Assembly: GCA_946611635.1 (NCBI GenBank)
Contig: CAMODW010000003.1
Coordinates: 2,364-66,363 of the forward strand
DNA length: 64,000 bases
Direction of reading: 5' to 3'
Origin: an uncultured Bacillota bacterium
Lineage (GTDB): Bacteria > Bacillota_I > Bacilli_A > RF39 > UBA660
Shown: one piece after another, positions 2,903-46,198 of the stretch
How positions within the stretch are numbered: the first letter of the stretch is position 1
How the letters are laid out: every line of letters starts with the position of its first letter
The notes under the pieces: model-generated
Told to the model about the DNA's origin: nothing
What the model saw: only the letters and a program-made list of their open reading frames with translations
Database searches by the model: none
Program-made: the position numbers and the translations under genes

Positions 2903-2966
2903 AGTTTCATTCTCCTTACCTTGTATTGATTATATCAAATAAATGGACTTTTTTAAACAATAAAAT

Positions 2967-2990
2967 AAAAAAAAGACCTATAAGGTCCTA
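2967..2990 (-). terminator. Intrinsic terminator downstream of the two minus-strand tRNA-type genes
   Basis: On the minus strand: GACCT-TAT-AGGTC followed by T8. The stem is short (5 bp). Confidence 0.45.
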
Positions 2991-3000
2991 TTATTTACAT

Positions 3001-3076: not shown

Positions 3077-3118
3077 ATAACTAAGTTCATTATAGCATGT
3101 TTTAATAAAAAAAACAAG

Positions 3119-3193
3119 TGGTGCCGACTGCCGGATTTGAACCAGCGACCTACGCGTTACGAGGGCGTTGCACTACCACTGTGCTAAGTCGGC
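3119..3193 (-). tRNA. tRNA-Thr (anticodon CGU)
   Basis: Reverse complement folds as a cloverleaf: GCCGACT acceptor, GCAC/GTGC D-stem with AGTGGTA loop, anticodon loop CTCGTAA, T-arm GCTGG-TTCAAAT-CCGGC, encoded CCA. There is one C-C mismatch at the base of the anticodon stem. Confidence 0.85.
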
Positions 3194-3314
3194 ATATATG
3201 AATTATACTATAAAAGTATTATTTTTTCATTATAATAATTAATAATTTATCTTTGAATAATGGTTTATATGGTATAATAAATTTGTTCAATTGTTTTTAA
3301 AAGGGAGATTTGTT

Positions 3315-3704
3315 ATGTTTAATGAAGATATTGAGATAGCTAAGAAAGCAAGATTAAATGCCCATTCACCATATGGTAAATATTTCGTTGGGGCATGTTT
3401 AAGATGCAAAGATGGTAGTGTTTATATGGGATGCAATATTGAAAATCATGGAATTCAATCTATATGTGCGGAAAGAACAGCTTTTGTTAAAGCTATATCA
3501 GAAGGTAAGAAAGAGTTTGAATCGATAGCGGTAGTTGGTGCACCTATGGGAGAAGAACCAAGTACAAAATGTCTACCTTGTGGATATTGTAGACAATTTA
3601 TGAGTGAGTTTATTGATGAGGATTTTAAGTTTATTCTTGAAGATAATGGAGAGATTGTTACTTATTCACTAGATGATTTATTACCTAATAGATTTGATTT
3701 TTAG
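3315..3704 (+). CDS. cdd: Cytidine deaminase
   Basis: CAERTA and CLPCGYCRQFM zinc-binding motifs. Size is about 130 aa. The ATG at 3315 is preceded by AAGGGAG. Confidence 0.85.
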   Translation: MFNEDIEIAKKARLNAHSPYGKYFVGACLRCKDGSVYMGCNIENHGIQSICAERTAFVKAISEGKKEFESIAVVGAPMGEEPSTKCLPCGYCRQFMSEFIDEDFKFILEDNGEIVTYSLDDLLPNRFDF

Positions 3705-3751
3705 ATAATTAATCATTTTTTGTGATACTTTGTTTTAAAAATATTAATATT

Positions 3752-3782
3752 AAAACTCGAAATGGTATTTCGAGTTTTTTTT
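3752..3782. terminator. Hairpin terminator shared by cdd (+) and ssrA (-)
   Basis: ACTCGAAAT-GGT-ATTTCGAGT followed by T8 on the + strand. Only A4 (T4 on the minus strand) on the other side. Confidence 0.7.
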
Positions 3783-3787
3783 CAATT

Positions 3788-4155
3788 TGGTGGAGTAGAG
3801 GAGAGTCGAACTCCTGTCCATAGTATCCTACTATACAAAATCTACAAGTTTAGTTAGATTTATTATTTCATTAAAGCGACGGCTATAACGTACCAACATC
3901 TTTAACTAGTCTAAATATTATTCGTTAGTATATCTTAGACTACATACTAGTATAATCTGTAAATATTAACCCTTATTTTATCCTACAGATAAAAATAAAT
4001 AAGAGTGCTCCGAACCTATTCTATTAGGCAAATGCTAAAGCATTTGGAGCGAAACCATAATTAGTTTCGTCATTTAATTTTAATTTTGAATTTTAGGTAT
4101 TCCTACCACTTGCATTCATACTTAGGAGTACTATGTCGAAACCATTTACTACCCC
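3788..4155 (-). ncRNA. ssrA: tmRNA (SsrA); predicted tag (A)DETNYGFAPNALAFA
   Basis: Minus-strand 5' end is GGGGTAGTAAATGGTTTCGACATAG. The 3' end is AGGAG-TTCGACT-CTCCT-CTACTCC-ACCA. The acceptor stem has the G3-U wobble used by AlaRS. The internal frame GAC GAA ACT ... GCA TTT GCC TAA TAG lies at 4071..4021. Confidence 0.9.
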
Positions 4156-4380
4156 AGGTGTAGAGATTATATCATTTAATAGTATTAAAAGTCAATTTTT
4201 TGCTTATTACTTGCTAATGGTTGTTTTTGACGATATGATTACAAAGTGTTATAATTTATCAGGTTTGTGGGTATTACACGTATTTATAATAACTATAAAA
4301 CACTTAAAGTTGACTTTTTAAAACGTGTGTGTTAGAGTATGCCTCAAATGAGAAAGTTTAGCTGCTAAAGGGGGTATAAT

Positions 4381-6072
4381 ATGATGAATGGTGGAAAGAA
4401 AAATAGATTAACTTTTTCGGTAGCTGCAATAGCTACTATACTTGCGTTTGGGACTTTATTTGGTCCTAGAGATGTACAAGCTAAAGAGATGAAAGGGACA
4501 ACTGTGCAAGATGCTCCATCGGGAGATGAAGAAACTGATACATTTGTTGAAGAATATTACAAAAAGATTCAGGAAGAACTGTCAGAATCCTTGGGGGATA
4601 GAGTACCTGTTCAGCATACTGAAGAAGTAACTGAAGAGAGTGAATCTACTGAAGAAGTAAATGATGAGAGTAAAAGTACTGAAGAGGATAATGCAGTTGA
4701 AGAAACTGATTCAAAAGAAACTACTGATGTAGAAGAAACGGTTCCTGCTACAAAAGAAACTATTGCTGCAGAGGAAACTGCTGCCGCAAGAGACATCGCT
4801 GCTACAAAAGAAGATTCTAATTCGGAAGGTAAAAAGTATTATAAATATTACTTCGTTGATGGCTTAGAATTCTTTGAAGTTACTGATAAAAAGGATTATA
4901 GCATACCAGAAGGAAAAGTAACTATTTGGAAATATGAGAATGGACAATGTATTTCTGAAGAAGTAGATTTTTCTACGGCTGAAAATGTACATATTGAATA
5001 TTTGTTATATTTAGAAGACGTAGATGCTAGTATTGTAGATGAAAACTATACTGGAATTGCTCCTTTAGACTATTATGGACCTGGACGAGAAGTTAAGAAT
5101 TACGGAGATGCTTCTAATGACGACGAAGTAAGAGAAAGAGCTACAATGGTTTGGAATGCTTTTCATAAAGCAAATGAAGAAGTTGGCGGCTTAATGATGT
5201 TTGATGTAGATACAGGAAAAGAATATACTGTTGAAAAAATAATGGATATCATTAAATATATGAATGGTGCTTATGTAGCTAAGGATGGCGCAGAGGCAAA
5301 AAAGATTAACGATGACTGGATTAATTTTATGGTAATGTTCTTAAATGATGGTAATTTAATAGAACATGTTACCTATCATTCTTATAGCGATGTTGTAACT
5401 GAAGATGATGTTAAAAAACATACTAATACTTTAGAAATGATTGATTTAGGGCATCTATTAATGGGAGATAGCGGTAATGGACCTTTCATAGAGTGGCTAG
5501 GTGATCAAATTAAAGCAATGTATACAACTACCGATAGAGATGAAGCTATTAGAATATATAATGAAATATCTCTAGCATTAACTGCTGTTTTTGAAGGTAA
5601 TGGATATGTTATTAATGGTGTTAATTATACTATTGAAGGTTTTAGCGATGTTAATGACTTAGTACTTATTACGGAGGTTGAAATTGGTCAAGTTCTAAGA
5701 AACGCTTGGATGTTAGATGGATATGTTTTAAATAAAGATAACGTTGGAATTGACATTATATTCTTTACTAATATATTAAATCAATTTAATCCTATGTGTT
5801 CAGATGAGCTGGCAGAGGAATTAATAAAAAACGGTGTAGAGGAATATGAGGGTGTTGTAGTTGATAGTAATGGTGAATACCTAGATATTAGGAACTATGC
5901 ATCAGTTATGCAAATGAAAGCGTTTAATATGGCTTTATCAAATGGTGAATATGGTATTAAATATTATCAAGATAATTATTTAGATTATTATGATGCCTAT
6001 ATTAAAGCATTAAATGGTGGTACTTATGAGGACGTATTAGAGTCTGAATATGTATATAAAAAGAAGAATTAG
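4381..6072 (+). CDS. Secreted protein with acidic low-complexity N-terminal region, function unknown
   Basis: 563 aa. Signal-peptide-like N-terminus (LTFSVAAIATILAFGTLFGPRDVQA), then an E/T/D-rich tract. 12-nt gap to the next ORF. Confidence 0.7.
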   Translation: MMNGGKKNRLTFSVAAIATILAFGTLFGPRDVQAKEMKGTTVQDAPSGDEETDTFVEEYYKKIQEELSESLGDRVPVQHTEEVTEESESTEEVNDESKSTEEDNAVEETDSKETTDVEETVPATKETIAAEETAAARDIAATKEDSNSEGKKYYKYYFVDGLEFFEVTDKKDYSIPEGKVTIWKYENGQCISEEVDFSTAENVHIEYLLYLEDVDASIVDENYTGIAPLDYYGPGREVKNYGDASNDDEVRERATMVWNAFHKANEEVGGLMMFDVDTGKEYTVEKIMDIIKYMNGAYVAKDGAEAKKINDDWINFMVMFLNDGNLIEHVTYHSYSDVVTEDDVKKHTNTLEMIDLGHLLMGDSGNGPFIEWLGDQIKAMYTTTDRDEAIRIYNEISLALTAVFEGNGYVINGVNYTIEGFSDVNDLVLITEVEIGQVLRNAWMLDGYVLNKDNVGIDIIFFTNILNQFNPMCSDELAEELIKNGVEEYEGVVVDSNGEYLDIRNYASVMQMKAFNMALSNGEYGIKYYQDNYLDYYDAYIKALNGGTYEDVLESEYVYKKKN

Positions 6073-6084
6073 GAGGTTTTGGAA

Positions 6085-9000
6085 ATGTACGATGAAAATG
6101 GAACTTACAGAATAGGTATTAACTGGAAGGATATAATTGTAAAGATTATATTAGTTATCTTATTTATTGTATTGCTTTTATGGTTATTTCCTAGAAATGA
6201 TCTAGGCGTATTCTATGATAGTGTTTATACAAATAATATAAATACTATGAGAGATGCTGCTGAGAGATATTATACAGGAAATAGATTGCCAGCTACTGTT
6301 GGTGAATCTAAAGTTATGACTTTAAAAGAAATGATCGATAATAAGATGATCATTAGATTCACAGATAAAGATAAAAATTACTGTGATGAGAATGCTAGTA
6401 GTATTCAAGTAACAAAAAATGCTACAGACGATTATGTATTAAAAGTGCATTTGGTTTGTGGTAAAGATGATGATTACATACTTGAAACTTTATCAGGTAA
6501 TGGATCAAATAATGGTTCTAATAATGGATCTGAATCATCTAATGTAAAAGAAAGTGCAGATAAAACAGAAAATTCAAGTAGTCAAGATGATAAAGAATCT
6601 GGTACATCTACTGGAAGTGTTGCTGCTAATAGTAGTGATGATGTAGAAGTTGATTATAGTGGATGTACAAATGTAAAAGATGCTGATACTGGAAATTGTG
6701 CGATATATAAAACAGCTGTTACAATGTATCAACATAGAAAAGCTGTTTATTATACAAAAACAGTTTATAGTTGCCCTGCTGGATATATTCAAAATGGTAC
6801 TAAATGTATAAAAGTAATAAAAGGTGCAACTATAGATGCAACACCAACTTATTCAAGTGGTGAAACTATAACTACCGATGCTTTAATAAATGGTGGTGGT
6901 CAAGTTACAGAATATGCTGATCCTATTAAAGTAGCAATTGGAACAGATTATGTTTGTGACGAAGGTTATACTAAGAATGGTACATTCTGTATTAAGTATA
7001 CAGATGCTAATGAAAAACCTGGTAAAAGTTCATATAAATGTGACGAAGGTTATAACTTAGAGGAAGATGGAGTTACTTGTAAAAAGACTTATACTGCTAC
7101 TTATGATGAAGGTGCAAGTAAATATACTTGTCCAAATGATGGAGATTTAAGTGGAACAAATTGTGTTGTAACAAAAAATGCAACAGCTACTCCTTCTTAT
7201 ACATGTCCAAGTGGATATACACAAAATGGTTCAAGTTGTTATAAAGTTTATAGTGCTACAGCAAAAACAACTTATACTTGTCCTAAAGGCGGAACTTTAA
7301 ATGGAACAAAATGTGTGGTTGGTGGTTCTGATACTATAGACGCAACAGCAAAAACAACATATAGTTGTTCAAGTGGATCGTTAAGTGGTAAGAATTGTAC
7401 TACAAATAGTACAATAAATGCAACAGCTTCTACAAAAAAGGCTTGCTCAAGTGGATCTTTGGTAGGAAATGATTGTGTTTCAACAACTACAATAAATGCA
7501 ACATCTGGAATAAAATATAGCTGTTCAAGTGGAACATTAAGCGGTAAGAGTTGTATTAATACAACTACAATAAATGCGACAAGTAGTCAAAAATATGCAT
7601 GTTCAAGTGGAACATTAAGTGGCAGAAATTGTATTACAAGTAGTACAATAAATGCAACAGCAAAAACAACATATAGTTGTTCAAGTGGAACGTTGAGTGG
7701 AACTAGTTGTATAAAATATTCAACTACAGGAGCTTCTTCTCATACAGAATATTCTTCTTGGCATCATAGTGGAACTTATTACTACACATCAGCTTCTAAA
7801 GCTTATACTGGAGATACATCAAAATTAGTATATAGTGGAGCTGTATCAGGAGCTTCTTGTGGATCTCCTTGTGGAAATTCAGGAATATGGTATAAATATT
7901 CATATTATACAAGAAGTAAGAGTACTGAAAAAACTTGTCCAAGTGGATATTCAAGAGATGGTTCAACTTGTACAAAGAAAACAACAACATCTGCTACTAA
8001 AAAGACAACATATAGTTGTCCAAGTGGATATAAACAAAATGGAACAAAATGTACAAAACAAAACACAACTGCAGCAACTTTAAAAACAGTTTATAGTTGT
8101 CCAAGTGGATATACATTAAATGGAACAAAATGTTCTAAAAAGACTACAACTGCAGCAACAGGTAAAACTGTTTATAGTTGTCCAAGTGGATATACATTAA
8201 ATGGAACAAAATGTTCTAAATCAACTAAAACAACACCAACATCAAAGACAGCTTATACATGTCCAAGTGGATATAAACAAAACGGAACAAAATGTACAAA
8301 ATCAGGATCAACTCCTGCAACAGCAAAAACAACTTATACATGTCCAAGTGGATATACATTAAATGGAACAAAATGTACAAAAGGTACAACTACATCATAT
8401 GATGCAACTGCAAAAGTAGAATATAGTTGTTCAGAGGGAGTTCTTGAAGGAAAAGAATGTAAAGTAACTACTAAAGCTACAGAAAAAACATCATATAGTT
8501 GTCCTGCAGGATACTCACAAAATGGAACAAAATGTACATGGACTTATGTGGCTACAAAAGAAGAAGGTCAAGGTGCTTATACATGTCCAAATGGTGGAGT
8601 TTTATCTGATAAAACTTGTATAATTACTAAGCCAGCTGAAGAAGTAACTGGTGAGAAAACTTATGAATGCCCAGAAGGATCATCATTAGAAGATGGTAAA
8701 TGTGTATACAAGGTTCAAGCTACTGCTAAAGTGGCATATGGTTATACTTGTCCAGATGGATATACTAAGAGTGGTGAAGGTGAATCAACGGTATGTTCTA
8801 AACTTGTTAATAAAGAAGGAATATACTATTGTGAAGATGCTTCAGCAATCTTAAGTGGAGATAAATGTTTAAAAAATGTTGATGGTCAAATTACTGGTTA
8901 TACTTGTCCAGATGGATATGATTTAAATGGAAAACTTTGTACAAAAGATACTACAGAAGTAATTGATGCAATTGCTTCAACTAAAACAACAACTTCTTAC

Positions 9001-16609: not shown

Positions 16610-18691
16610 ATGAATTATTTAGAAGAATTAAATGATAAACAAATAGAAGCAGTTATTCATGTTGATGGCCCTTGTTTGGTGTTAGCCGGAGCTGGGTCTG
16701 GTAAGACTAAAGTTCTTACTACAAGGATTGCTAGATTGATAGATTGTGGAATTCCATCATATAATATATTAGCAATAACTTTTACTAATAAAGCAGCTAA
16801 GGAAATGAAGGATAGATTAGAAAGAATTGTCCCTGGCAATTATGCTTTTGTTGGTACGTTTCACTCACTTGGTGTTAGAATTTTAAGAGAAAATGCAAGT
16901 GTGTTAGGTTATGATAAGAATTATTCGATAATTGATAGTGATGATGCTTTATCTATTATTAAAAAAATAATGAAAGAAAAGACATATATATCTAAAGATA
17001 TTACACCATCATATGTTAGAAATAAAATTAGTAGTATAAAAAACGATATGTTATCAGATAATGAAATAGATAATTATTTTTCGTCTGGAAATGATTCAAT
17101 AGTAAAGGATATTTATTATGAATATCAAGCTATATTAAGGAAAAATAATTCTGTAGATTTTGATGATTTATTATTATTACCTGTAAAGCTTTTTATGGAA
17201 CATAAGGATGTATTAGAAAGCTATCAAGATAAATATAAATATATATTAGTAGATGAGTATCAGGATACTAATGAAGTACAATATAAATTGTCTAAATTAT
17301 TAGCTAGTAAATATAAAAATATATTTGTTGTAGGTGATCCTGATCAATCTATTTATATGTTTAGAGGGGCTAATTTTAGAAACATATTGAATTTTGAAAG
17401 AGATTATAAAAATGCAAAGGTTATTTCATTGGAGGAAAACTATAGGTCTACTAATAATATATTAGAAGCAGCTAATTCTGTTATAAAAAATAATAAAGAA
17501 CGAAAAGAAAAGAATTTATGGAGTAATAAAGGCGAAGGTAAAAAAATCAAATATTTAAGAGCTTATGATGGGAAACATGAAATACAGCTAGTATTAGATG
17601 AAATAAAAAGAATAAAAGATGAATATGATTATAATGATATAAGTGTTTTATATAGAACTAATGCTCAAGCAAGGCTTGTTGAAGAAATGTTTTTGAAAGC
17701 TAATATTCCATATAAAGTAGTAGGAAGTTATTATTTCTATAATAGAAAGGAAATTAAAGATTTAATATGTTATTTAAGATTAATACTAAATAAAGATGAT
17801 GAAATAAGTTTACTTCGAGTAATTAATGTACCTAAACGTGGTATAGGAGAAGCTACTATTAAGAAAATAGAAGAAACAGCTAGGGATAATAATATATCTA
17901 TGTTTGAAGCTATATCAAAGGGTAAAGAATTAGGATTTAAAAACTTGATATTTGAACTTATAAAAGATTCTGAAGAATTATCTTTAACTGATTTGGTTGA
18001 AGATATTTTAAGTAAAACTGGTATAAGAGCAGAATATGAAAGTAATAAAAATCTAGAAAATGAGTTAAGGTTAGATAACTTAGAAGAGTTTAAATCTATT
18101 ACGAAAACTTTTGAAGAAAGAACAGGTTCTGTCTCATTAGAAGATTTTTTGGAAGAGATATCTTTAATAGCTGATATATCTGAGCATCGTGATGATAGTG
18201 ATGCTGTAACTTTAATGACTATGCATAGTGCAAAAGGATTAGAATTTAAAGTTGTATTCTTAGTTGGAATGGAAGATGGTATTTTTCCACATCAAAATGC
18301 TTTTTTTGAATCTCAAGGATTAGAAGAAGAAAGACGTCTTTGTTATGTTGCGATTACAAGGGCTAAAGAAAGACTATATATAAGTAATGCTAAAAGAAGA
18401 ATGTTATATGGAAAAGATGTTGTTAATCCACCTAGTCGTTTTATAAAAGAAATTGATGAGGATTTACTAGAAGTAGAAAACAAGAATATGTTTGAAGGAG
18501 AAAAAATAGATAAGAAAAAGTATTATTCTGATGATGTTGTTGATTATAAAGATGGAGATATAATAAATCATGATGTCTATGGAAAAGGTGTTGTTGTTAG
18601 TATAAATGGTGATATAATAACAGTAGCTTTTAATAAAAAGTATGGCATTAAAAAATTATTAAAGAATTATAAAGGAATAACTAAAGAATAG
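16610..18691 (+). CDS. pcrA: ATP-dependent DNA helicase PcrA (UvrD/Rep family)
   Basis: AGAGSGKT Walker A, VDEYQDTN, and YRSTNNIL motifs. 693 aa. Confidence 0.9.
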   Translation: MNYLEELNDKQIEAVIHVDGPCLVLAGAGSGKTKVLTTRIARLIDCGIPSYNILAITFTNKAAKEMKDRLERIVPGNYAFVGTFHSLGVRILRENASVLGYDKNYSIIDSDDALSIIKKIMKEKTYISKDITPSYVRNKISSIKNDMLSDNEIDNYFSSGNDSIVKDIYYEYQAILRKNNSVDFDDLLLLPVKLFMEHKDVLESYQDKYKYILVDEYQDTNEVQYKLSKLLASKYKNIFVVGDPDQSIYMFRGANFRNILNFERDYKNAKVISLEENYRSTNNILEAANSVIKNNKERKEKNLWSNKGEGKKIKYLRAYDGKHEIQLVLDEIKRIKDEYDYNDISVLYRTNAQARLVEEMFLKANIPYKVVGSYYFYNRKEIKDLICYLRLILNKDDEISLLRVINVPKRGIGEATIKKIEETARDNNISMFEAISKGKELGFKNLIFELIKDSEELSLTDLVEDILSKTGIRAEYESNKNLENELRLDNLEEFKSITKTFEERTGSVSLEDFLEEISLIADISEHRDDSDAVTLMTMHSAKGLEFKVVFLVGMEDGIFPHQNAFFESQGLEEERRLCYVAITRAKERLYISNAKRRMLYGKDVVNPPSRFIKEIDEDLLEVENKNMFEGEKIDKKKYYSDDVVDYKDGDIINHDVYGKGVVVSINGDIITVAFNKKYGIKKLLKNYKGITKE

Positions 18692-35736: not shown

Positions 35737-35759
35737 CTAGTCGATAGACTAGTTTTTTT
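35737..35759 (+). terminator. tRNA-Gly terminator; copy 1 of the CTAGTCGATAGACTAG-T6 hairpin repeat
   Basis: CTAGTC-GATA-GACTAG followed by T7. Confidence 0.75.
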
Positions 35760-36314: not shown

Positions 36315-36389
36315 ATTATCATTCTCCTTAAATTAAATTATATAATAATTTTAAGCTTTTTAATATACTTTGATAAGTGTGGTATACAA

Positions 36390-36411
36390 CTAGTCGATAG
36401 ACTAGTTTTTT
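36390..36411 (+). repeat. Copy 2 of the CTAGTCGATAGACTAG-T6 hairpin (22/22 identical to 35737-35758)
   Basis: Direct repeat 653 bp downstream of copy 1. No + strand gene lies upstream for it to terminate. Confidence 0.8.
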
Positions 36412-36462: not shown

Positions 36463-36489
36463 TTGACTTTTTCTTACATATGGTATAAT
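36463..36489 (+). promoter_or_regulatory. Sigma-A-type promoter of the purB operon
   Basis: TTGACT, 15-nt spacer, TGgTATAAT (extended -10). About 25 nt upstream of the purB RBS. Confidence 0.6.
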
Positions 36490-36513
36490 ATACTATATGT
36501 AAGGAGGGAAAAT

Positions 36514-37861
36514 ATGAATAGATTGAAAATGATATCACCAATAGATGGTAGGTATTGTAATTATACTAACGTACTTGAAGATTATTTTAGTGAATATGCT
36601 TATTTAAAATATCGCTTTAATATTGAAATTGATTGGTTAAGTTATTTGATGCAATTAAAAATGATTATTAATACTGAAAAAGCAAAAAAAGAGCTTAATA
36701 ATATTAAAAAATCTTTTTCTTTGGATAGTGCAAAAAAAAATAAAAGAAATAGAAAGAATAACAAACCATGATGTTAAAGCAATAGAATATTATATTAGAA
36801 AAATTTTGAAAGCTAAAAAATTAGATGAATTAGAAAGCTTTGTTCATTTTGGCTTAACGTCTGAGGATGTTAATAATTTGGCAATTTCAAAGATGTTAAA
36901 AGATTTTCTTGAGAGTACATTTTTTATTAAAGTAGAAGAGTTAATAAATGAATTAGTAGAAAAGAAAATGGCTTATAAGGATATAACCATGTTATCACAT
37001 ACTCATGGTCAGCCAGCTACACCAACAACTGTTGGTAAAGAGCTTGCAGTATATATCTATCGAATAAAAACTATAGCTAATACAATAAAATCTTTAAAAC
37101 TTAGAGGTAAACTTTCTGGAGCTGTTGGTAACTTTGCTGCGTTAGTTGTAGCTTATCCAGATAAAGATTGGTTAAAAGTATCTAAAAAGTTTGTTGAAAG
37201 TCAAGGACTAGAATTTAATCTGTTAACAACACAAATTGAATCTCATGATGTCTTATGTATGATTCTGAATTTAGTAAAAAATCTAAATAATATTGTTTAT
37301 GATTTGAATCAAGATATGTGGTTGTATATTTCAAACAGTTATTTCAAATTAAAAGTAATTGATAAAGAAGTAGGATCTTCTGTAATGCCACATAAGGTTA
37401 ATCCAATTAATTTTGAAAATTCAATGGCTAATATGAGATTATCAAATTCTTTAATAGATTGTTTAGTTGATAATTTACAAATATCTAGAATGCAAAGGGA
37501 TTTATCAGATTCTTCGTTTCAAAGAAATATAGGGGTTTTATTTGGGTATTTTTTAGTAGGTATTAATCAAACGATAGTAGGGTTAAAGAAATGTGAGATT
37601 AATAACGAAAAAATAAGTGATGATTTAAAAAATAATCCTGAAGTTATCGCTGAAGCAATTCAAACCGTTTTAAGAAAGAATAAAGATACTAAAGCATATG
37701 AAAAATTAAAAAAAATAACACGAGGTAAAAACGTTTCAATAAATGCTCTTTATAAATACATAAATAAATTAGATATTAATGACGATGATAAAAATAGTCT
37801 GCTTAATCTTAATGTTGAAGATTATATAGGATTATCTAAAGAATTGTCAGATTTAGTTTAG
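36514..37861 (+). pseudogene. purB: Adenylosuccinate lyase (E. coli-type PurB) interrupted by a reading-frame change in an A9 tract
   Basis: The N-terminal 75 codons (MNRLKMISPIDGRY...SFSLDSAKK) are in frame 1 and the rest (IKEIERITNHDVKAIEYY...) in frame 2. With eight A instead of nine at 36732-36740, the two parts join as ...SAKKIKEIERITNHD.... Confidence 0.8.
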
Positions 37862-37871
37862 GAGGTAAAGT

Positions 37872-38426
37872 ATGGAAATAACAGCTACTATATTAGGTTT
37901 AGTGCAAGGAATATTAGTTATGCTTAATAGAAGAAGTAACTGGATATTCTATATATTTCAAATGATATTTTTAATAATATTTTCTAGTATTAATCATTTA
38001 TATGGAGATGTTGTAAACAATTCATTTTATCTAATTCTTGGATTTATAGGATTTCTTGAATGGAGCGAGAATAAGAAATCGATCAATATAGGAAGGGCTA
38101 CTAATGATGAAAAAATTAAATATATTGTAATAATTGTTATGGGAACAATGGTGCTAAATGTATTCTTAAAAGCAACAAATGATCCATTACCATTATTAGA
38201 TTCGTTTACAACAATAAGTAGTTTAGTAGCAACTTATTATATGATAAGAAAAAAAATAGATACTTGGATTATTTGGTTTATAAACGATGTGTTTTATGCA
38301 ATAGAGTATTTTATGTTACCAAAACAGGCGTTATATTTGTTCTTATTAAATATAGTTTGGGCGTTTATGGCAATAGGTTCTTATTTTAATTGGTATAGGA
38401 TAATGAAAGGACAAGAAGCAACATGA
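37872..38426 (+). CDS. PnuC-family nucleoside (nicotinamide riboside-type) transporter
   Basis: 184 aa, about 7 TM helices, with conserved aromatic/Trp pattern typical of PnuC. Substrate not inferable. Confidence 0.7.
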   Translation: MEITATILGLVQGILVMLNRRSNWIFYIFQMIFLIIFSSINHLYGDVVNNSFYLILGFIGFLEWSENKKSINIGRATNDEKIKYIVIIVMGTMVLNVFLKATNDPLPLLDSFTTISSLVATYYMIRKKIDTWIIWFINDVFYAIEYFMLPKQALYLFLLNIVWAFMAIGSYFNWYRIMKGQEAT

Positions 38427-38932
38427 TTAAACTATTTTATTCAGGAACTTATAAAGTTCGTCACGAATTGATTAATAAAGAAAATGTATTAGAAATGTTA
38501 AAAGATGATATAAGAAGCAAAATAGTTGGTAATGTTAAAGATACTGTTTATGCTTCAAATGGGGTGGTAATTAATAAAAATAAAAATGTTATGTATATTG
38601 GAGGTTTTTATTATGAGAAACAAGATGAAAATAAGTCGGTTTGTGAAAATGTTGTAAGTGAAGAATTAAAACAAATAGATAAATGCGATTTAGTAGTTGC
38701 TAATCTAACTAAGTACTCTGCAATAGCATCTATTACAGAGATAATATATGCAGCATTTAAACGAAAAAAGATTGTAATATTTTGTGATCCTAAAATAACT
38801 AGCTATGAAATAGAGGGAGAATATTGGTTTCCAATATTGGCTTGTAAACAATTAAATAAAAATATAGAAGTTAAGTTTGTAAATAATGAAAAAGAAATAA
38901 TAAATTATATCAATGAATTAAAGGAGGAATAA
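38423..38932 (+). CDS. Nucleoside 2-deoxyribosyltransferase / DNPH1-like fold protein
   Basis: CDLVVANLTKYSAIASITEIIYAAFKRKKIVIF parallels the ADVVVAE..S.G..YE.G.A...KP motif of that superfamily. Overlaps the pnuC-like stop by 4 nt. Confidence 0.5.
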   Translation: MIKLFYSGTYKVRHELINKENVLEMLKDDIRSKIVGNVKDTVYASNGVVINKNKNVMYIGGFYYEKQDENKSVCENVVSEELKQIDKCDLVVANLTKYSAIASITEIIYAAFKRKKIVIFCDPKITSYEIEGEYWFPILACKQLNKNIEVKFVNNEKEIINYINELKEE

Positions 38933-40195
<1,263 letters not shown>

Positions 40196-40211
40196 AAAAG
40201 GAGAAATAAAT

Positions 40212-41498
40212 ATGAAGGTTGACGTAATAGTTGGGGGACTATATGGAGATGAAGGAAAAGGGAAAGTTGTTTCTAATTTAGGAAAAAACTACGATTATAT
40301 ATTTAGAGTTAATGCATCTACAAATGCTTCGCATACAGTTGTATTAGAAGATGGTAAAATGTTTGTTACTAAACAATTACCTTCTGTATTTGGTAAAGAG
40401 GATATTAAATTTGTTGTTGCTCCTGGAGCTGTATTAAATTTACATGCTTTAAGATTAGAACTAGAAAGTAGAAATGATTTAGATAAGATGTATAACAAAG
40501 TAACTATTGCTTCTAGTATAAGCTTGTTAATTAATCCGTATATTGATCGTAATAAAGAACAAAATCATTCTAAAAAATATGGTAGTACTAATCAAGGAAC
40601 TGGTAATGCAATAATTGCAAGAGATGCTAGACATTCTGTTAAATTAATGGATGTTAAAAATGTAATAAACAAAACTGTTTCTTTTGAATCTTTGGTTGAT
40701 AAAATTAAAGAATCTTGCTTTGAGCTAGATAAATCATTTTATCAAGATAAAGCGAATGAATACTTTGTTTTAGAAGCTAATAGTCTTATGGAAGATTATA
40801 AAAGAATAGAAGAATTAATAGGGGATTTTTGCAAGGATTATAGTAATTTCTTGTATAATATTGAATCTGATTCTAATATCCTTATAGAGGGGTGCAATGG
40901 AATTATGTTAGATAATTTACATGGGCTTAATCCGTTTACAACTAGTTCTTCAACTAGTATCAATTCATTATTAAATGGAGCAAATATTAGTCCGTGTTAT
41001 TTAAATGAAATGTATGTCATAATTACTGGTTATTTTTGTTGCTTAAATAAGAGACCTTTCTTAACAGAAATGGAATCTAATGAAGCAGATAAATTATATA
41101 AGTATAATTCTGAAGTAGATGATGCTGAAAATATGAAAAGAAGACTTGGGTGGTTTGATTTACCTACTTTAAGAAAATCTTTGATAGGACATAAAAAAGC
41201 TAAACTAATCTTAAATAAATTAGATATTATGCAAGATTTAGATGTAGTAAAAGTATGCGATTATTATTTAAATGAAAATGGTGACAAAATATATGTAATG
41301 CCAGACGATACCCACGAATTAAAGAAATTAAGGCCTCATTATAAAGAGTTTAAAGGCTGGGGGAATATAGATAATATAGATAAAGATAGTATTCCAACAT
41401 CTTTGAAAGAATATATTAAATATATTGAAAAAGAAACAAAAGAAAAAGTTGCTTATATAGGAGTAGGAAGAAAAGATAAGGATTTAATAGAGCTCTAG
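40212..41498 (+). CDS. Divergent adenylosuccinate-synthase-family paralog (substrate unknown)
   Basis: Keeps the GDEGKGK P-loop, a His in NASHT, NKLD, and TTSSS. Changes are GTTxxGIGPAY to GSTNQGTGNAI, EGAQ to EGCN, and the Asp-binding GTTTxRPRRCGW loop to AENMKRRLGW. Confidence 0.7.
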   Translation: MKVDVIVGGLYGDEGKGKVVSNLGKNYDYIFRVNASTNASHTVVLEDGKMFVTKQLPSVFGKEDIKFVVAPGAVLNLHALRLELESRNDLDKMYNKVTIASSISLLINPYIDRNKEQNHSKKYGSTNQGTGNAIIARDARHSVKLMDVKNVINKTVSFESLVDKIKESCFELDKSFYQDKANEYFVLEANSLMEDYKRIEELIGDFCKDYSNFLYNIESDSNILIEGCNGIMLDNLHGLNPFTTSSSTSINSLLNGANISPCYLNEMYVIITGYFCCLNKRPFLTEMESNEADKLYKYNSEVDDAENMKRRLGWFDLPTLRKSLIGHKKAKLILNKLDIMQDLDVVKVCDYYLNENGDKIYVMPDDTHELKKLRPHYKEFKGWGNIDNIDKDSIPTSLKEYIKYIEKETKEKVAYIGVGRKDKDLIEL

Positions 41499-41513
41499 AA
41501 GAGGAAGAATAAT

Positions 41514-41924
41514 ATGATAATACTAGAAGGAACAGATGCAGTAGGTAAAAGTAGTGTAATTAATAATTTAAATGATTATAAATTATTAGATCGCGATAAA
41601 AAAATCTGTAAACTATTTGATTTTAATGTATCATTATTAGATCGAGTAAATAAATTAAATGAATATTTAAATAATAATAAAAACTATATAATAATTTTAG
41701 TTAATAATGATAAAGAGGAATTAGAAAGAAGAGTTGATTTAAGAGATACAATTGATGAATACGATAGATATACTTACTTATATAATCTATTATATTTAGA
41801 AACATATTTATATATGGAAAAGAATGATTTGCTTCGTAATAGAATATTTATGGTAGATTGTACAGGATTAACTTTAGAAGAACAAACGAATAGAGTAAAA
41901 GAAATAGTAGATGAAATGGTTTAA
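41514..41924 (+). CDS. Small P-loop nucleoside/nucleotide kinase-like protein
   Basis: N-terminal ILEGTDAVGKSS resembles the dTMP-kinase-type EGxDxxGKS/T P-loop. Only 136 aa. Confidence 0.5.
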   Translation: MIILEGTDAVGKSSVINNLNDYKLLDRDKKICKLFDFNVSLLDRVNKLNEYLNNNKNYIIILVNNDKEELERRVDLRDTIDEYDRYTYLYNLLYLETYLYMEKNDLLRNRIFMVDCTGLTLEEQTNRVKEIVDEMV

Positions 41925-41948
41925 TAAAATAGAAAGGTAGTAAATAAT

Positions 41949-42506
41949 ATGCCTAGTATATGTTCACATATGATTATAGCTAAAGAAGTTGCCAAAAGAT
42001 TAAATATTAATAGTGATGAATTTATTAGAGGTAATTTACTCCCTGATATTATCGATTTAAAAGACAGTCATCATAAAATAAAAAAAAGTGTTTATATGGT
42101 TCCTAATATTAATTATTTTATAAAAAAACTAGATCTCACTAGTGAATTAGATATGGGATATCTAACACATTTATTGTTAGATAAACATTATTTAGAAGAT
42201 TATTTAAGTAATTTATATCCAAATAAGAATGTATTCTTGGATGGTTTAATATATAAAGATTATGATTATTTAAATCATTTATTAATAAAAGAATACAAGT
42301 TAGATACTGAGTATATAAGAAAAGTATTAATAAAGTACGATTGCAATATTTCAAAAGAAAAGTTAAAATATAATATAAACTGTTTGGGACAAAACATATC
42401 TGGAGAAACATATTATTTAAAATATAATAGTTTTTCAGAATTTCTAAGAAATATTTCTAAAACAATTAGTGAGGAGTTGGTTAAGTATGCAAATAAACCT
42501 AATTAG
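41949..42506 (+). CDS. Putative metal-dependent hydrolase (His-rich, zinc-dependent phospholipase-C-like N-terminal pattern)
   Basis: MPSICSHMIIAKEV...GNLLPDI...SHH...THLLLDKHY pattern. Assignment is weak. Confidence 0.35.
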   Translation: MPSICSHMIIAKEVAKRLNINSDEFIRGNLLPDIIDLKDSHHKIKKSVYMVPNINYFIKKLDLTSELDMGYLTHLLLDKHYLEDYLSNLYPNKNVFLDGLIYKDYDYLNHLLIKEYKLDTEYIRKVLIKYDCNISKEKLKYNINCLGQNISGETYYLKYNSFSEFLRNISKTISEELVKYANKPN

Positions 42507-43200
42507 TTGTCTATTCGTATTAGATAGTGAAAAAAATGATAATATTAGAAAAAATGATATAAAAAAAATAAAAGTATTGGTAGATAAAAATGGTAATTTA
42601 CCTTCTATATTAAATGACGGGAAGCACATGAGGACAAAGATAAATGAAATGTTGACTAGTATAGTTGGGACTAATAATTTTCATACGCAACAAGTTTGTG
42701 CAATGTCATATGATGATAGTGTAGATATTGTTTATGTAGGAGCAATGAATATAGAAAATATAAAACAATTATATGATAATTATCAATTGTTAGATTTTAA
42801 AGTAAAGGGTAATAATACTATTTTTATTGGGGATAAAATATTTAATTATAAGACAGTAGAAATAATAGAGAATAAGAATATAATTTATAAACAAATAATA
42901 GATATCGAAGATGAAGTATTAAAAAGAAAAATGAAGAATATTCTTCTATCATATAAACGTATAAGAGTAGATATAGATACTACAGATGTAATATTTAAAT
43001 TTATGCCAAATGAATTTACTTTAGAAGATGTTAGAATTGTATATGAAATAATAAAAGATCAAGAAGTAGATAAATCTAATTTTCGAAAGAAAATAAGTAA
43101 ATACTGTAAAAAATTAGATAATAAGTCTAATGAAAAAACAGGGTATAGACCTAGTCAAAAATATGAATTTGTACCATTGAAAGGAGATGTATGGTTATGA
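42487..43200 (+). CDS. NrtR-like regulator: degenerate Nudix-like N-domain plus C-terminal winged helix
   Basis: C-terminus FTLEDVRIVYEIIKDQEVDKSNFRKKISKY...GYRPSQKYEF matches the NrtR-type wHTH pattern. No intact Nudix box seen. Overlaps the upstream ORF. Confidence 0.55.
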   Translation: MQINLISCLFVLDSEKNDNIRKNDIKKIKVLVDKNGNLPSILNDGKHMRTKINEMLTSIVGTNNFHTQQVCAMSYDDSVDIVYVGAMNIENIKQLYDNYQLLDFKVKGNNTIFIGDKIFNYKTVEIIENKNIIYKQIIDIEDEVLKRKMKNILLSYKRIRVDIDTTDVIFKFMPNEFTLEDVRIVYEIIKDQEVDKSNFRKKISKYCKKLDNKSNEKTGYRPSQKYEFVPLKGDVWL

Positions 43201-43757
43201 TTATTGCTTCAAATAATAAAGGTAAAATAGAAGAAATAAAAAAAATACTAAGTGAATATGAGATTTATTCTTTGAAAGATAAAAATATAAATGTTGATGT
43301 AGAAGAAGATGAGGATACATTTTTGGGTAATGCAACTAAAAAAGCTAAAGAAATATATGGTATAGCAAAAGAAGGGACTATAGCTGATGATTCAGGATTA
43401 TGTATTGATTGTTTAGATGGATTTCCTGGTGTTATGACACATAGATTCTTAGGGGAAGATGCAACTGATAGAATGAGAAATGAATACTTGATAAAAGAAG
43501 TTAACAAACATGAAGATAGAAGTGCACAGTTTGTTTGTAATATGGTATATTATGATGGAGAGAGAACTGTTGTTGGAGAAGGAATATTAAATGGTGTTAT
43601 AGCACGAGAATGTAGAGGAGAAAATGGTTTTGGTTTTGATGAGATTTTTGAATTACCAAATGGCTTAACATTAGCTGAACTATCATCAAAAGAAAAAAAC
43701 GAAGTTAGTTCAAGAACTCTTGCTTTAAAAGATTTAAGAAATAAATTAAATAACTAG
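43197..43757 (+). CDS. rdgB: Non-canonical purine NTP pyrophosphatase (RdgB/HAM1 family)
   Basis: IIASNNKGKIEE, DDSGLCIDCLDGFPGV and GFGFDEIF motifs. The start overlaps the upstream stop. Confidence 0.85.
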   Translation: MIIASNNKGKIEEIKKILSEYEIYSLKDKNINVDVEEDEDTFLGNATKKAKEIYGIAKEGTIADDSGLCIDCLDGFPGVMTHRFLGEDATDRMRNEYLIKEVNKHEDRSAQFVCNMVYYDGERTVVGEGILNGVIARECRGENGFGFDEIFELPNGLTLAELSSKEKNEVSSRTLALKDLRNKLNN

Positions 43758-43774
43758 TCTAAAGACTAGTTTTT
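43753..43774 (+). terminator. Operon terminator; third member of the ACTAGTC-loop-GACTAG hairpin family
   Basis: ACTAGTC-TAAA-GACTAGT followed by T5. The stem is identical to copies at 35737 and 36390 and only the loop differs. Confidence 0.75.
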
Positions 43775-43794
43775 GTTTACGTTGTACAATGTAA

Positions 43795-44578: not shown

Positions 44579-44604
44579 AAACATCTCAAACGAGATGTTT
44601 TATT
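44577..44604. terminator. Bidirectional hairpin between convergent genes
   Basis: AACATCTC-AAAC-GAGATGTT flanked by A and T runs. Confidence 0.65.
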
Positions 44605-46198
44605 TAGCTGTAAAATATCCTGGATTAGATGGACCACCATCTATATGAGCATATTCATCATTTATTTTAGTACTATTAAATACAGTTCCCATGCCTCCAA
44701 CAAGTTTATAATCTTGCCAGAACATATCTTTTACAAGGCTCTCTGACTTTTTATTAGCAGTCGTAAATTTATCACCAACATAGATAGTTTTTAATCTACC
44801 ACACGAACGGAACATATTATCAAAAGCCGTAGCATTAGTTGTATCAAAACTGCTTATATCTAAAACTTCTAATTTAGAGGCACCATTAAACATGGTTTGA
44901 TAATTCTTAACCTTTGGTGTTCTAAAATTACTCAAGTCTAAGGTTTTAAGACCTACACTTTGAAACATAGTAGACATATTAGTAACATTAGAAGTATCAA
45001 AGCTACTCAAGTTAAGACTTGTTAAACTATAATCACCACTAAACATATAGTGCATATTAGTTACTTTAGAGGTATTAAAATTACTTAAATCTAAGCTTTT
45101 TAATCTAAAATTACCAGCGAACATTCCGGTCATATTAGTTACTTTCGAAGTATCAAAACTACTTACATCTAAAGCAGATAGATTGTGTAATTCCATAAAC
45201 ATATTATTCATATTATTTACTTTCGAAGTATTAAAATTACTTATATTCAATGATGTTAAAGCATTACATCCTCTAAACATTTCTTCCATATTAGTAACAT
45301 TATCTGTTTTTAATGAACTTAAATCTAATGTTTTAAGACTAGTAGCTTGTAAAAACATATATCCCATGTTTGTTGTATTATAAGTATTTAAGTTCTCTAT
45401 ACCTTCAATAGTTTTTAAATTAAACATATAAGCGAATAGAGCATAAGTTGATTTAACAAATATTTGTCCTTCTGATCCAATAGTTACTTCATATAAACCA
45501 TTTCTATCTTTATCTTCTACCCACGAAAGAATAGTTCCTTTTGATCCGGCTCCTGCATCAAAACAATCTCTGTTATTCTTTTTATGACCTTCTAAACTAT
45601 TAGTAAATCTAACTTTTTCAATTTTTTTCTTCGCAGTTTTAGTTCTTAAGAATACTTCAGTACCATTACTCTCTGAATATCCCAAATGGAATGAATTCTT
45701 CATTAAGAAATCAGATCCAGGAGGAGGAGTATTCTCTTCAAGTATAGGATAAGAAACTTTATCACATTGAATTTTAAACATTTCTTCTTTTTTAAGTTTA
45801 GACATTCTAAATACTTTTTTGATTTCGGTTTCTTTTAAGCCCTCTCCCGTATATTTAAAGCCATAAACACTATCGGTAATATAGTATTCAATAACATTTC
45901 CGGATGCGTTTAATTTTATATAGTATTCTATTTCATTTCTGACACTTAATGGCAACTCATTATCACATTTTTTTTCTTTTGTTCTAGAGTAAACTATTTC
46001 TTTTGCTTCAGTTATTGTATCATTCATCCATGTTTTTTGAGCAGACCTATATACTTGTCTTACTTCATTTAAAAACATGTTCTTTTTAGAATAATTTAGT
46101 ATTGTTGTTACTCCTATTAAAGCCATAATAATAATTATTGCTAATATCGCTATAACGGCTAGTAATTCAACTAAGGTAAAACCTCTATTATTTTTCAT
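44600..46198 (-). CDS. Type IV pilin-like leader fused to BspA-type leucine-rich repeats (DUF285-like)
   Basis: N-terminus MKNNRGFTLVELLAVIAILAIIII is a class III prepilin signal (G/FTLVE). The C-terminal half holds about 9 repeats of DLSNFNTSKVTNMxxMF. Confidence 0.8.
   Translation of the reverse strand: MKNNRGFTLVELLAVIAILAIIIIMALIGVTTILNYSKKNMFLNEVRQVYRSAQKTWMNDTITEAKEIVYSRTKEKKCDNELPLSVRNEIEYYIKLNASGNVIEYYITDSVYGFKYTGEGLKETEIKKVFRMSKLKKEEMFKIQCDKVSYPILEENTPPPGSDFLMKNSFHLGYSESNGTEVFLRTKTAKKKIEKVRFTNSLEGHKKNNRDCFDAGAGSKGTILSWVEDKDRNGLYEVTIGSEGQIFVKSTYALFAYMFNLKTIEGIENLNTYNTTNMGYMFLQATSLKTLDLSSLKTDNVTNMEEMFRGCNALTSLNISNFNTSKVNNMNNMFMELHNLSALDVSSFDTSKVTNMTGMFAGNFRLKSLDLSNFNTSKVTNMHYMFSGDYSLTSLNLSSFDTSNVTNMSTMFQSVGLKTLDLSNFRTPKVKNYQTMFNGASKLEVLDISSFDTTNATAFDNMFRSCGRLKTIYVGDKFTTANKKSESLVKDMFWQDYKLVGGMGTVFNSTKINDEYAHIDGGPSNPGYFTAK

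Follow-up and report, generated by a model that had tools for sequence, protein, structure and literature searches.

The 64-kb window examined here (that is, the whole stretch of DNA analyzed, from contig CAMODW010000003.1 of an uncultured Bacillota bacterium) includes an operon of nine genes, among which a second, remodeled member of the adenylosuccinate synthetase (PurA) family, herein called PurA2, is our main concern. All nine genes are on the forward strand, together spanning 36514-43757, and encode, in order, adenylosuccinate lyase (purB), a PnuC-family nucleoside transporter, a candidate NDT/DNPH1/MilB-superfamily protein (NDT-like), a canonical PurA, PurA2, a small thymidylate-kinase-like (Tmk-like) kinase, an orphan-fold protein, a winged-helix regulator, and the RdgB (Ham1) pyrophosphatase. 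The recomputed intergenic gaps are +10, -4, +3, +16, +15, +24, -20 (or -38), and -10 nucleotides (nt), with the seventh being set by the choice of start codon for the regulator, and this matches the range of -20 to +24 nt and the three overlaps given in a first-pass annotation that had been made from the sequence alone. The family scans agree with this annotation on purB, PnuC, purA, the second PurA-family gene, and rdgB, and its nine-gene layout likewise stands, except that purB is frame-split rather than intact. Flanked by MurE, a tRNA, and a transfer-messenger RNA (tmRNA), the operon lies in a window that is chromosomal.

The remodeled PurA-family enzyme and its genomic settings

PurA2 (40212-41498, forward strand, 428 residues) matches the PF00709 profile with 281 bits, and this over its full length, as residues 5-425 align with profile positions 1-415 of 416. 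Even so, it scores under the curated cut-offs for PurA (TIGR00184, 253.4 versus 395.55 bits; NF002223, 246.5 versus 402 bits), and reaches only 93.8 bits on the PurZ model NF038379 (cut-off 300). By alignment, PurA2 is 29% identical to the neighboring PurA and 25% to E. coli PurA, whereas in the protein data bank (PDB) it finds the solved PurA structures at 25-31% identity over their full length (E ~1e-45 to 1e-34) and the PurZ structures over its first ~140 residues only. A word-indexed search returned 284 homologous proteins at E <=1e-20, the best 120 of which range from 99% down to 41% identity and come mostly from gut and rumen metagenomes, with uninformative names. When a family profile was run against 1.84 billion representatives clustered at 50% identity, ~7 full-length clusters with 413-671 bits were recovered along with three fragments, and the next below them were canonical PurAs at no more than 273 bits; in fact, the first protein under this step in score (P0369) carries all of the canonical PurA motifs. 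Hence, with its members at 413 bits or above and canonical PurAs at 273 bits or below, the PurA2 family stands apart from housekeeping PurA duplicates. Between the window and the near-identical contig L194, the ratio of nonsynonymous to synonymous polymorphism (pN/pS) for PurA2 is 0.21, which signifies purifying selection.

Other searches for relatives gave mixed returns. Among the matches listed for a generic GDEGKGK pattern in viral and genome collections, there were only canonical PurAs at no more than 31% identity, while the back-translated pattern RVNASTNA[SG]H had no match in IMG/VR and 20 loci in genomes. Three of these 20 loci (L174, L176, and L189) were rejected as chance DNA matches inside unrelated genes, and another two (L179 and L188) hold PurA2 fragments only. 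No PurA2-family member was found among the INPHARED GenBank phage records, where all matches were under 30% identity, and PADLOC gave no defense-system match for PurA2 or its neighbors. In the literature searched for a PurA-like enzyme tied to HisG, SAICAR synthetase, coformycin, or phage counter-defense, the PurA2 family is not described. Separately, we noticed that two divergent family members (P0364 and P0365) have the altered P-loops SDSGKGK and SDEGKGV; one of the two has a 106-residue N-terminal extension, possibly membrane-associated in itself, and the other a C-terminal extension of ~300 residues.

To compare active sites, 120 family members were aligned with 130 canonical PurA representatives and tabulated in E. 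coli PurA numbering, with an E. coli PurA sequence serving for numbering only, and in which Asp13, Asn38, and His41 land as expected. Here, G12-K18, Asp13, Asn38, His41, Thr129, Thr239, Arg305, Lys331, and Asp333 are kept in 95-100% of the family, and Arg143 in 91%; Ala39, Glu221, Asp229, and Arg306 are kept as well. The alignment thus confirms the GDEGKGK, catalytic-position histidine (His41), and NKLD motifs that had been read as retained in the first pass. Set against these are near-invariant replacements (G35A, G36S, G40S, R131Q, I133T, A223C, Q224N, D231L, R272C, V273L, G274N, A275K, G276R, G298D, T300A, T301E, and R303M). Likewise confirmed are the motif changes noted earlier, namely GTTTxRPRR to D-x-A-E-x-M-K-R-R, EGAQ to EGCN, and GIGPAY to GTGNAI. 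Arg131 forms part of the L-aspartate site in PurA, and Gln224 is a contact to the base of inosine monophosphate (IMP). Moreover, Arg303 of PurA touches both the IMP 2'-oxygen (O2') and aspartate, and the corresponding loop of PurZ has a conserved tip (T273-T276) that makes contact with aspartate (PMC8342488). At the aspartate-site positions, the family has Ala300 (99%), Glu301 (99%), Met303 (94%), and Gln131 (100%), where canonical PurAs have Thr300 (73%), Thr301 (96%), Arg303 (96%), and arginine or lysine at 131 (85%), and at position 224 asparagine (100% of the family) takes the place of glutamine (90% of canonical PurAs). The altered aspartate and base-contact residues are therefore replaced family-wide, and neither site is intact.

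Since the residues of the GTP machinery are kept and those of the aspartate site replaced near-invariantly, the alignment indicates that the GTP phosphotransfer machinery and the anchor for a nucleoside monophosphate are preserved, while the aspartate site has been rebuilt and then frozen, as has part of what surrounds the base and the ribose. Judged from its sequence, PurA2 is a distinct, selected, and rare lineage without an aspartate site, and not a decayed duplicate.

Directly 3' of PurA2 is the gene for the small Tmk-like P-loop kinase (41514-41924, forward strand, 136 residues), whose assignment comes from its fusions to PurA2 and from hhalign comparison; family scans of it gave no match except a weak one to Dynamin_N, and single-sequence and profile searches of the PDB with it returned nothing significant. 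In two fusion proteins of 571-577 residues (P0050 and P0057), this kinase is joined to the C-terminus of PurA2. On a phage-like contig (L013), the gene 5' of PurA2 encodes this small kinase joined to a SAICAR-synthetase-like domain, and clusters around PurA2 in Clostridia encode HisG-Tmk-like and FmdA-HisG-Tmk-like fusions. In fact, the window kinase is homologous to the Tmk-like domain that is fused to HisG in L180 and L186 (hhalign probability of 96%), and in L186 a single 736-residue protein (2199-4409, reverse strand) joins an FmdA-like amidase, HisG, and the Tmk-like domain, an architecture that, to our knowledge, no described enzyme has. The gene found 3' of PurA2 in L006 is guanylate-kinase-like. 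From these arrangements, the small kinase would be a functional partner of PurA2. The fusions, together with the recurrence of Ham1 and NDT-like neighbors, strengthen an earlier suggestion in which the kinase, the NDT-fold protein, and the NTPase are partners of PurA2.

Seven of the operon genes (pnuC, NDT-like, PurA2, kinase, orphan-fold, regulator, and rdgB) form a core that recurs in L001-L003, L187, L194, and L195, with purA and purB as variable members of the conserved block. The sources of this core include Bacilli metagenome-assembled genomes (MAGs) from goat jejunum, an uncultured Bacillales MAG (L001), Hadza gut, and a Clostridium-labeled MAG (L187). On the 125-kb contig L195, the core has a different gene order, with the orphan-fold and kinase genes placed before PurA2, and a PurA2 that is 58% identical; conservation of the neighborhood beyond this strain thus holds down to that level of identity. 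The L195 module (2172-6095) also lies just 3' of a Prim-Pol gene, a helix-turn-helix regulator, and a large serine recombinase. This recombinase context, and the tRNA-adjacent position in the window, hint that the seven-gene module is horizontally mobile.

More conspicuously, PurA2 is found in a second type of setting. Clusters of the pentostatin type are defined by a HisG-like PenA, an SDR-family PenB, and a SAICAR-synthase-like PenC (PMC12648386), and such HisG-like, SDR, and SAICAR-synthase-like genes, which are absent from the window operon, are present around PurA2 in L006, L180, L184, L186, and L196. Among the gut Clostridia MAG loci examined around PurA2 (L177, L180, L183, L184, L186, L190, L191, and L196), all eight have SAICAR-synthetase-like genes, and seven of the eight (all but L190) have genes for HisG, fused to the Tmk-like kinase, and for an FmdA-like amidase. 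SDR genes are near PurA2 in four of these loci (L180, L184, L186, and L196) and HisA/HisI genes in two (L184 and L196), an NDT-like homolog adjoins PurA2 in L180, and an orphan-fold homolog belongs to the cluster in L186, as it does in L196. In L196, PurA2 is followed immediately by a purA-purB pair, and the cluster further has ABC exporters and a regulator of the NrtR type. Outside of this set, L006 has genes for HisG, HisI/HisE (PRA-CH/PRA-PH), a HisA/HisF-family (His_biosynth) protein, two SAICAR-synthetase-like proteins, and an FmdA-like protein, the high-GC L011 has Ham1, HisG, and SAICAR-synthetase-like genes near PurA2, and in the Myxococcota locus L192 a fused HisA-HisI-HisE protein adjoins PurA2. 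Strong PHROG matches on neighboring genes mark L008, L010, and L013 as phage-like, and of these L008 (900-6272) carries HisG, Ham1, PurA2, SAICAR-synthetase-like, and HAD genes; in L010, none of the pathway genes comes within 8 kb of PurA2 in either direction. Directly upstream of the PurA2 gene set in L008 is an array of 13 tRNA genes.

In a neighbor-joining tree, the Bacilli-type and cluster-type contexts fall within one Firmicute PurA2 clade, from which a phage clade and a high-GC/Myxococcota clade are separate, and because both contexts share the one Firmicute clade, the same enzyme would serve in both settings. This tie to pentostatin/coformycin-type gene sets and to phage-like contigs had been overlooked in the first-pass annotation.

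Other operon genes and the operon boundaries

The purB gene (36514-37861, forward strand; Lyase_1 and ASL_C domains) is broken by a +1 frameshift at a run of nine adenines (36732-36740) into open reading frames (ORFs) at 36514-36771 and 36728-37861, which was overlooked when the gene was first listed. On NCBIfam NF006764, the N-terminal piece scores 59.9 bits and the C-terminal piece 498.9 bits. Contig L194 (98.6% identical) has eight adenines at this place and a single intact purB ORF of 449 residues. As purB is under purifying selection between the two strains (pN/pS of 0.125), the extra adenine looks to be a sequencing error or a very recent event, which could be an inactivation of the gene; a site prone to slippage could also account for it. 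The canonical purA (38936-40195, forward strand, 419 residues) has 584 bits on PF00709, passes both curated models (NF002223, 564.2 versus 402 bits; TIGR00184, 524.6 versus 395.55 bits), and shows intact aspartate and IMP sites in the alignment. It is 68% identical to the purA found 3' of PurA2 in L196, which suggests that purA and purB travel together with the PurA2 module. The purA and purB copies of L196 (11311-13965) are each broken over two reading frames in this Logan assembly.

The PnuC-family transporter (37872-38426, forward strand, 184 residues) is well supported by PF04973 (124 bits) and by TIGR01528 (79.9 bits versus a cut-off of 42.45). Following it is the NDT-like protein (38423-38932, forward strand, 169 residues), whose Pfam matches to PF15891 and PF05014 (23.6 and 18.4 bits) are under their cut-offs of 30 and 28.8, and for which single-sequence and profile searches of the PDB gave nothing significant. 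Its AlphaFold2 model, with a mean predicted local distance difference test (pLDDT) score of 78.8, has weak fold matches by Foldseek to the CMP N-glycosidases BcmB and MilB, to DNPH1, to 4mcj, and to NDTs (template modeling scores of 0.4-0.55, probabilities of 0.99-1.0). The former label of deoxyribosyltransferase/DNPH1-like thus comes from sub-threshold Pfam matches and weak fold matches. There are 265 homologs, the best 120 of which are at least 75% identical, and Glu106 in the TEI motif, which would be the nucleophile, is invariant. An N-glycosidase or a base-exchange enzyme could be encoded here.

The orphan-fold protein (41949-42506, forward strand, 185 residues) is all-alpha and conserved, and comes just short of the threshold for PF00882 (Zn_dep_PLPC; 26.3 versus 26.8 bits). 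It has 130 homologs; His7, Asp33, His41, and Asp78 are invariant and His74 nearly so. Despite an AlphaFold2 model of high confidence (pLDDT of 95.7), Foldseek had no match at E <1 in the PDB or BFVD, and single-sequence and profile searches of the PDB likewise returned nothing significant. It may be a Zn-dependent phosphoesterase; the earlier label of metal hydrolase comes from this near-threshold family match, with no fold match beside it. With homologs in L196 (33 bits) and L195 (23 bits), an orphan all-alpha fold appears to travel with PurA2.

Overlapping this gene is that of the regulator (42469-43200, forward strand, from a GTG at 42469, or else from an ATG at 42487), which has a C-terminal winged-helix domain of the NrtR/AraR type (PF21906, 55.7 bits) and homologs in L195 and in the L196 cluster. 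On the NCBIfam NrtR model it scores 32.5 bits against a cut-off of 400, its PDB matches (NrtR, AraR, and NadQ) cover the winged-helix DNA-binding domain only, and neither family scans nor the PDB search recognized a Nudix domain in its N-terminal part. Its description as NrtR-like therefore applies to the winged-helix domain, the rest of NrtR being unmatched. Last in the operon is rdgB (43191-43757, forward strand, 188 residues), which encodes a Ham1-type pyrophosphatase for non-canonical purine NTPs (PF01725, 192 bits; TIGR00042, 160.9 versus 145.35 bits).

As for the boundaries, a promoter-like site (36463-36489, forward strand), found by sequence reading and a scan, consists of a -35 hexamer TTGACT (36463-36468) and an extended -10 element TGGTATAAT (36481-36489), and ends 25 nt 5' of the purB start; a AAGGAGGG ribosome-binding site comes immediately before the purB ATG at 36514. 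Because the region shows no enrichment of promoter-like matches taken as a class (67 versus 74 expected), the call of an operon promoter is one of position and quality alone. Terminator-like sites number 8 versus 1.4 expected, and one of them is a bidirectional hairpin at 43752-43775 (AACTAGTC-TAAA-GACTAGTT, then a T-run) that overlaps the rdgB stop codon. A promoter-like site and a terminator hairpin are thus present at the operon ends, where a single promoter and a single terminator had been proposed earlier, with the promoter call being positional only. A second copy of the hairpin palindrome (AACTAGTC-GATA-GACTAGTT and a T-run), at 36388-36411, is ~55 nt 5' of the -35 hexamer. In all, the 64-kb window has three copies of CTAGTC-N4-GACTAG (35737-35752, 36390-36405, and 43754-43769, each followed by a T-run and, like both hairpins, assigned to no strand), compared with 0.04 expected by chance; the first is 3' of a tRNA gene, and the other two flank the operon on both sides. 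These could be shared terminators or remnants of an insertion beside the tRNA. Among the retrieved relatives, a copy of this palindrome occurs only in L194. An Rfam scan found no riboswitch 5' of the window operon or of the related clusters.

Elsewhere in the window, there is a clear tmRNA (3788-4155, reverse strand; Rfam, 112.9 bits), as well as a match just above threshold (66.3 versus 65.2 bits) to the Rfam C. difficile sRNA n00280 at 18293-18394 (forward strand), inside a 693-residue ORF; this Rfam entry is described as 'included into helicase gene'. A protein of 532 residues (44600-46198, reverse strand) carries at its N-terminus a methylation motif like that of type IV pilins and, after it, DUF285 leucine-rich repeats, and this Mycoplasma-type DUF285 protein fits a Mollicutes-related or reduced-genome Bacilli host.

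Proposed role of PurA2 and alternative explanations

Our best reading of PurA2, though one we hold tentatively and with somewhat less than even confidence, is that of a GTP-dependent enzyme that activates a 6-oxopurine nucleotide, uses a nucleophile other than aspartate, and feeds the small kinase. Its basis is family identity, the residue changes, the gene fusions, and synteny, from which we infer the chemistry, the substrate, and the nucleophile. According to this reading, PurA2 would be a catalytically competent enzyme of the PurA fold that binds GTP and a nucleoside 5'-monophosphate, and probably moves the GTP gamma-phosphate onto an oxo group beside the imidazole ring, as PurA does on IMP. 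The activated intermediate would then be resolved by a nucleophile other than L-aspartate, with ammonia or another (cationic) amine seeming the likeliest, since an invariant acidic D-x-A-E replaces the aspartate loop. The product would be a nucleoside monophosphate, which, as the gene fusions suggest, the Tmk-like kinase would convert to the diphosphate. Within the window, the PurA2-kinase pair would sit inside an operon for purine-nucleotide salvage and sanitation: the PnuC-type carrier would import a nucleoside, the processing of glycosidic or phosphate bonds would fall to the NDT/DNPH1-fold enzyme and to the orphan-fold protein, which is probably metal-dependent, RdgB would bring deaminated purine triphosphates back to the monophosphate level, the usual IMP-to-AMP route would run in parallel through PurA and PurB, and the winged-helix protein of the NrtR type presumably regulates the operon. 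In other Firmicutes, the module is joined to the HisG/SAICAR-synthetase-like/SDR set of the pentostatin/coformycin type, and because of this joining, PurA2 and the kinase may supply the nucleotide consumed by such a pathway, or else modify an 8-oxo-diazepine nucleotide. All told, PurA2 probably makes a purine nucleotide by a chemistry not yet described.

In one version of this proposal, PurA2 and the kinase would take a 6-oxopurine (deoxy)nucleotide to the 6-amino diphosphate without need of aspartate or PurB, RdgB/Ham1 would recycle deaminated triphosphates into substrate, and, in the clusters, the route would feed HisG. The weakness of this version is that the neighboring canonical PurA would make it redundant. 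Two of the replacements, R303M and V273L, are similar to those that accompany 2'-deoxy substrates in PurZ, but specialization for dIMP-to-dAMP conversion was kept as a sub-option only, given that the source of dIMP is unclear and the lost aspartate site would go unexplained. FmdA-like amidases as ammonia donors for PurA2 were also set aside, as a role inside the diazepine pathway explains them equally well. Several other points weigh against the proposed amination. The kept Arg305/Arg306 and the new invariant Lys275-Arg276 make a carboxylate-bearing nucleophile that is not aspartate possible, and the invariant Cys223 and Cys272 (E. coli numbering) could mean thiol chemistry instead. Moreover, the canonical purA that is co-resident in two lineages makes a second IMP-to-AMP route look redundant, and so the substrate may not be IMP, while the roles given to PnuC and to the NDT-like and orphan-fold proteins are guessed from the families to which they belong.

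Of the alternatives, the least probable in our estimation is the one carried over from the first-pass annotation, in which nicotinamide-riboside salvage is fused to purine salvage, with PnuC importing, the kinase phosphorylating, the NrtR-like protein regulating, and PurA2 being an unrelated or redundant duplicate. The PnuC protein does pass the TIGR01528 equivalog cut-off, and the regulator does carry the NrtR winged-helix domain, but that same domain occurs in AraR, and some members of the PnuC family carry other substrates than nicotinamide riboside. Pairs of PnuC and a converting enzyme are real modules, as in phage NARP3, where a PnuC-like importer is accompanied by a bifunctional NadR-like nicotinamide-riboside-converting enzyme (PMC13464706), though NARP3 itself, being PnuC plus NadR, was dismissed as a relative of the window system. 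Here, the kinase is Tmk-like, lacks a NadR/NRK (AAA_28) signature, and is fused elsewhere to PurA2 or to HisG and SAICAR-synthetase-like domains; the family scan found no gene like an NMN (nicotinamide mononucleotide) adenylyltransferase or cytidylyltransferase in the operon; the regulator is far under its NrtR cut-off and has no detectable Nudix domain; and the score gap, residue pattern, and pN/pS do not describe a neutral duplicate. This leaves the reading weak. Scarcely less doubtful is that PurA2 is either an adenylosuccinate synthetase isozyme of the ordinary kind, which would use aspartate, or a pseudoenzyme without activity. The full-length PF00709 match and the 25-31% identity with solved PurAs would suit either, yet for an isozyme every class of aspartate-binding residue is replaced in all 120 members and there is the gap in bit score to canonical PurA, whereas for a pseudoenzyme the 95-100% conservation of the P-loop, Asp13, His41, Asn38, Thr129, Thr239, Lys331, and Asp333 and the pN/pS of 0.21 are contrary. 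By reason of the lost aspartate site, the reaction of PurZ/ToyG type that had been suggested before (aspartate addition and cleavage by PurB) is unlikely too.

More closely tied to the clusters is the idea that PurA2 and the kinase serve an adenosine-analogue ('protege') pathway beside a pentostatin-type 'protector', either in precursor supply or in target-copy self-resistance, with the window lineage having kept this half only, which we regard as quite improbable. A kinase, a metal-dependent phosphoesterase, and an oxidoreductase do together echo the cordycepin route, and the purA and purB copies in L196 would fit supply or resistance. Pentostatin-type clusters always pair a deaminase inhibitor with an adenosine analogue, and the HisG-Tmk fusions resemble fungal Cns3, a nucleoside kinase fused to HisG (PMC12648386). 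On the other hand, the window-type operon is widespread in gut Bacilli, has an importer and no exporter, and is found together with rdgB, purA, and purB of the housekeeping type; it would be odd to make a toxic analogue and not its protector, and no known analogue pathway requires an aspartate-blind PurA. Rather unlikely, if less so, is that PurA2 acts on 8-oxo-coformycin 5'-phosphate, with the window operon as an uptake and salvage arm in which PnuC would import a diazepine nucleoside made by gut Clostridia. The carbonyl of this compound sits where O6 of IMP sits, Q224N and A223C may enlarge the base pocket, and PurA2 is inside complete PenA/PenB/PenC-type sets (HisG-Tmk, SDR, SAICAR-synthetase-like, and HisA/HisI), with ABC exporters in L196. 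Moreover, the two contexts, which belong to one Firmicute clade, share PurA2, the kinase, and the NDT-like, Zn_dep_PLPC-like, NrtR-type regulator, and purA/purB genes, and differ mainly in having a biosynthetic set versus a PnuC importer, as is the usual signature of de novo versus salvage; redundancy with the neighboring canonical PurA would also be removed. Against this, the window operon is without HisG, SAICAR-synthetase-like, and SDR genes and would need unproven cross-feeding, the clusters also have an SDR for reducing the 8-oxo group and hence a competitor for this carbonyl, phage-like L010 has its PurA2 apart from any pathway genes, and we know of no natural 8-amino or other 8-substituted coformycin. 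In its boldest form, to which we give a rather smaller chance, PurA2 would be the first PurA-fold enzyme with both a non-IMP substrate and a non-aspartate nucleophile, activating the 8-oxo group of a coformycin-type nucleotide, such that gut Bacilli salvage a Clostridia-made nucleoside through PnuC to the di- or triphosphate and phages possibly use it to counter defenses that deaminate adenine nucleotides.

The activation of a 6-oxopurine nucleotide for attack by a nucleophile other than aspartate, which we favor, would matter since the chemistry of PurA, with phosphorylation of the oxo group by GTP and then its displacement by aspartate, was long considered fixed. PurZ showed that the substrate can change, and PurA2, if we are correct, would show that the nucleophile can change too. 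The outcome would be either that a 6-aminopurine nucleotide is reached in one step and without PurB, or that diazepine nucleotides undergo a new tailoring reaction. The PurA2 family also links housekeeping purine salvage in uncultured gut Bacilli with auxiliary genes of phages and with clusters of the pentostatin/coformycin type, these being in gut Clostridia and in Myxococcota, whose phyla are not known for such compounds. Should the products be deaminase inhibitors or re-aminated nucleotides, they would bear on phage counter-defense against ATP/dATP-deaminating immunity, and also on adenosine signaling in the gut, and if diazepine salvage is true, the gut microbiome would have a non-canonical purine nucleotide that is cross-fed and put to physiological use.

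Comparison with known systems

When compared with PurA (EC 6.3.4.4; E. coli 1ADE and others), PurA2 has the same fold, length, GTP P-loop (GDEGKGK), and NKLD motif, along with the same catalytic Asp13/His41 pair and 5'-phosphate ligands (Asn38, Thr129, Thr239, and Arg143). In contrast, the aspartate site is replaced (R131Q, G298D, T300A, T301E, and R303M), as are a base contact (Q224N) and its neighbor (A223C), the ribose-side loop is changed (R272C, V273L, G274N, A275K, and G276R), and PurA2 makes up its own small clade. The first half-reaction of PurA2 would nonetheless be like that of PurA and PurZ. Known as the succino-2-amino-deoxyadenylate synthase of Z-genome phages (PMC8342488), PurZ (or PurZ0) has in common with PurA2 that it is a PurA paralog with a changed nucleotide specificity beside an NTP pyrophosphatase, which is MazZ there and RdgB/Ham1 here. 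In some phages, PurZ is also beside the NDT-family N-glycosidase DmtZ (PMC12884076), just as the window operon has its NDT-like protein, and both PurZ and PurA2 match phrog_1211 and have Arg303 lost or displaced. Yet PurZ keeps the loop tip that contacts aspartate and still needs the host PurB, whereas this loop in PurA2 is D-x-A-E. Moreover, PurZ is of the archaeal type with ~340-365 residues and uses ATP, while PurA2 is full length and keeps NKLD, and in place of the Asp13 kept by PurA2 there is a serine in PurZ (PMC8342488). Nor does the setting correspond to the phage Z-cluster (DatZ, MazZ, and DpoZ), as the window is chromosomal, with RdgB and the NDT-like protein as functional analogues only.

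The operon also resembles PnuC/NadR/NrtR salvage systems (NARP3 included) in having a PnuC carrier, a small P-loop kinase, and a winged-helix protein of the NrtR type together, but differs in that its conserved partners are purine enzymes. With the pentostatin/coformycin clusters, the likeness is that the same three gene types, plus HisA/HisI, surround the PurA2 relatives, and that HisG is fused to a kinase as in Cns3. In the literature searched, there was no described pentostatin-type cluster with an aspartate-blind PurA homolog or an FmdA-like amidase. The hosts are different as well, for while pentostatin and coformycin clusters belong to actinomycetes and fungi, PurA2 is found in gut Firmicutes, Myxococcota, and phages.

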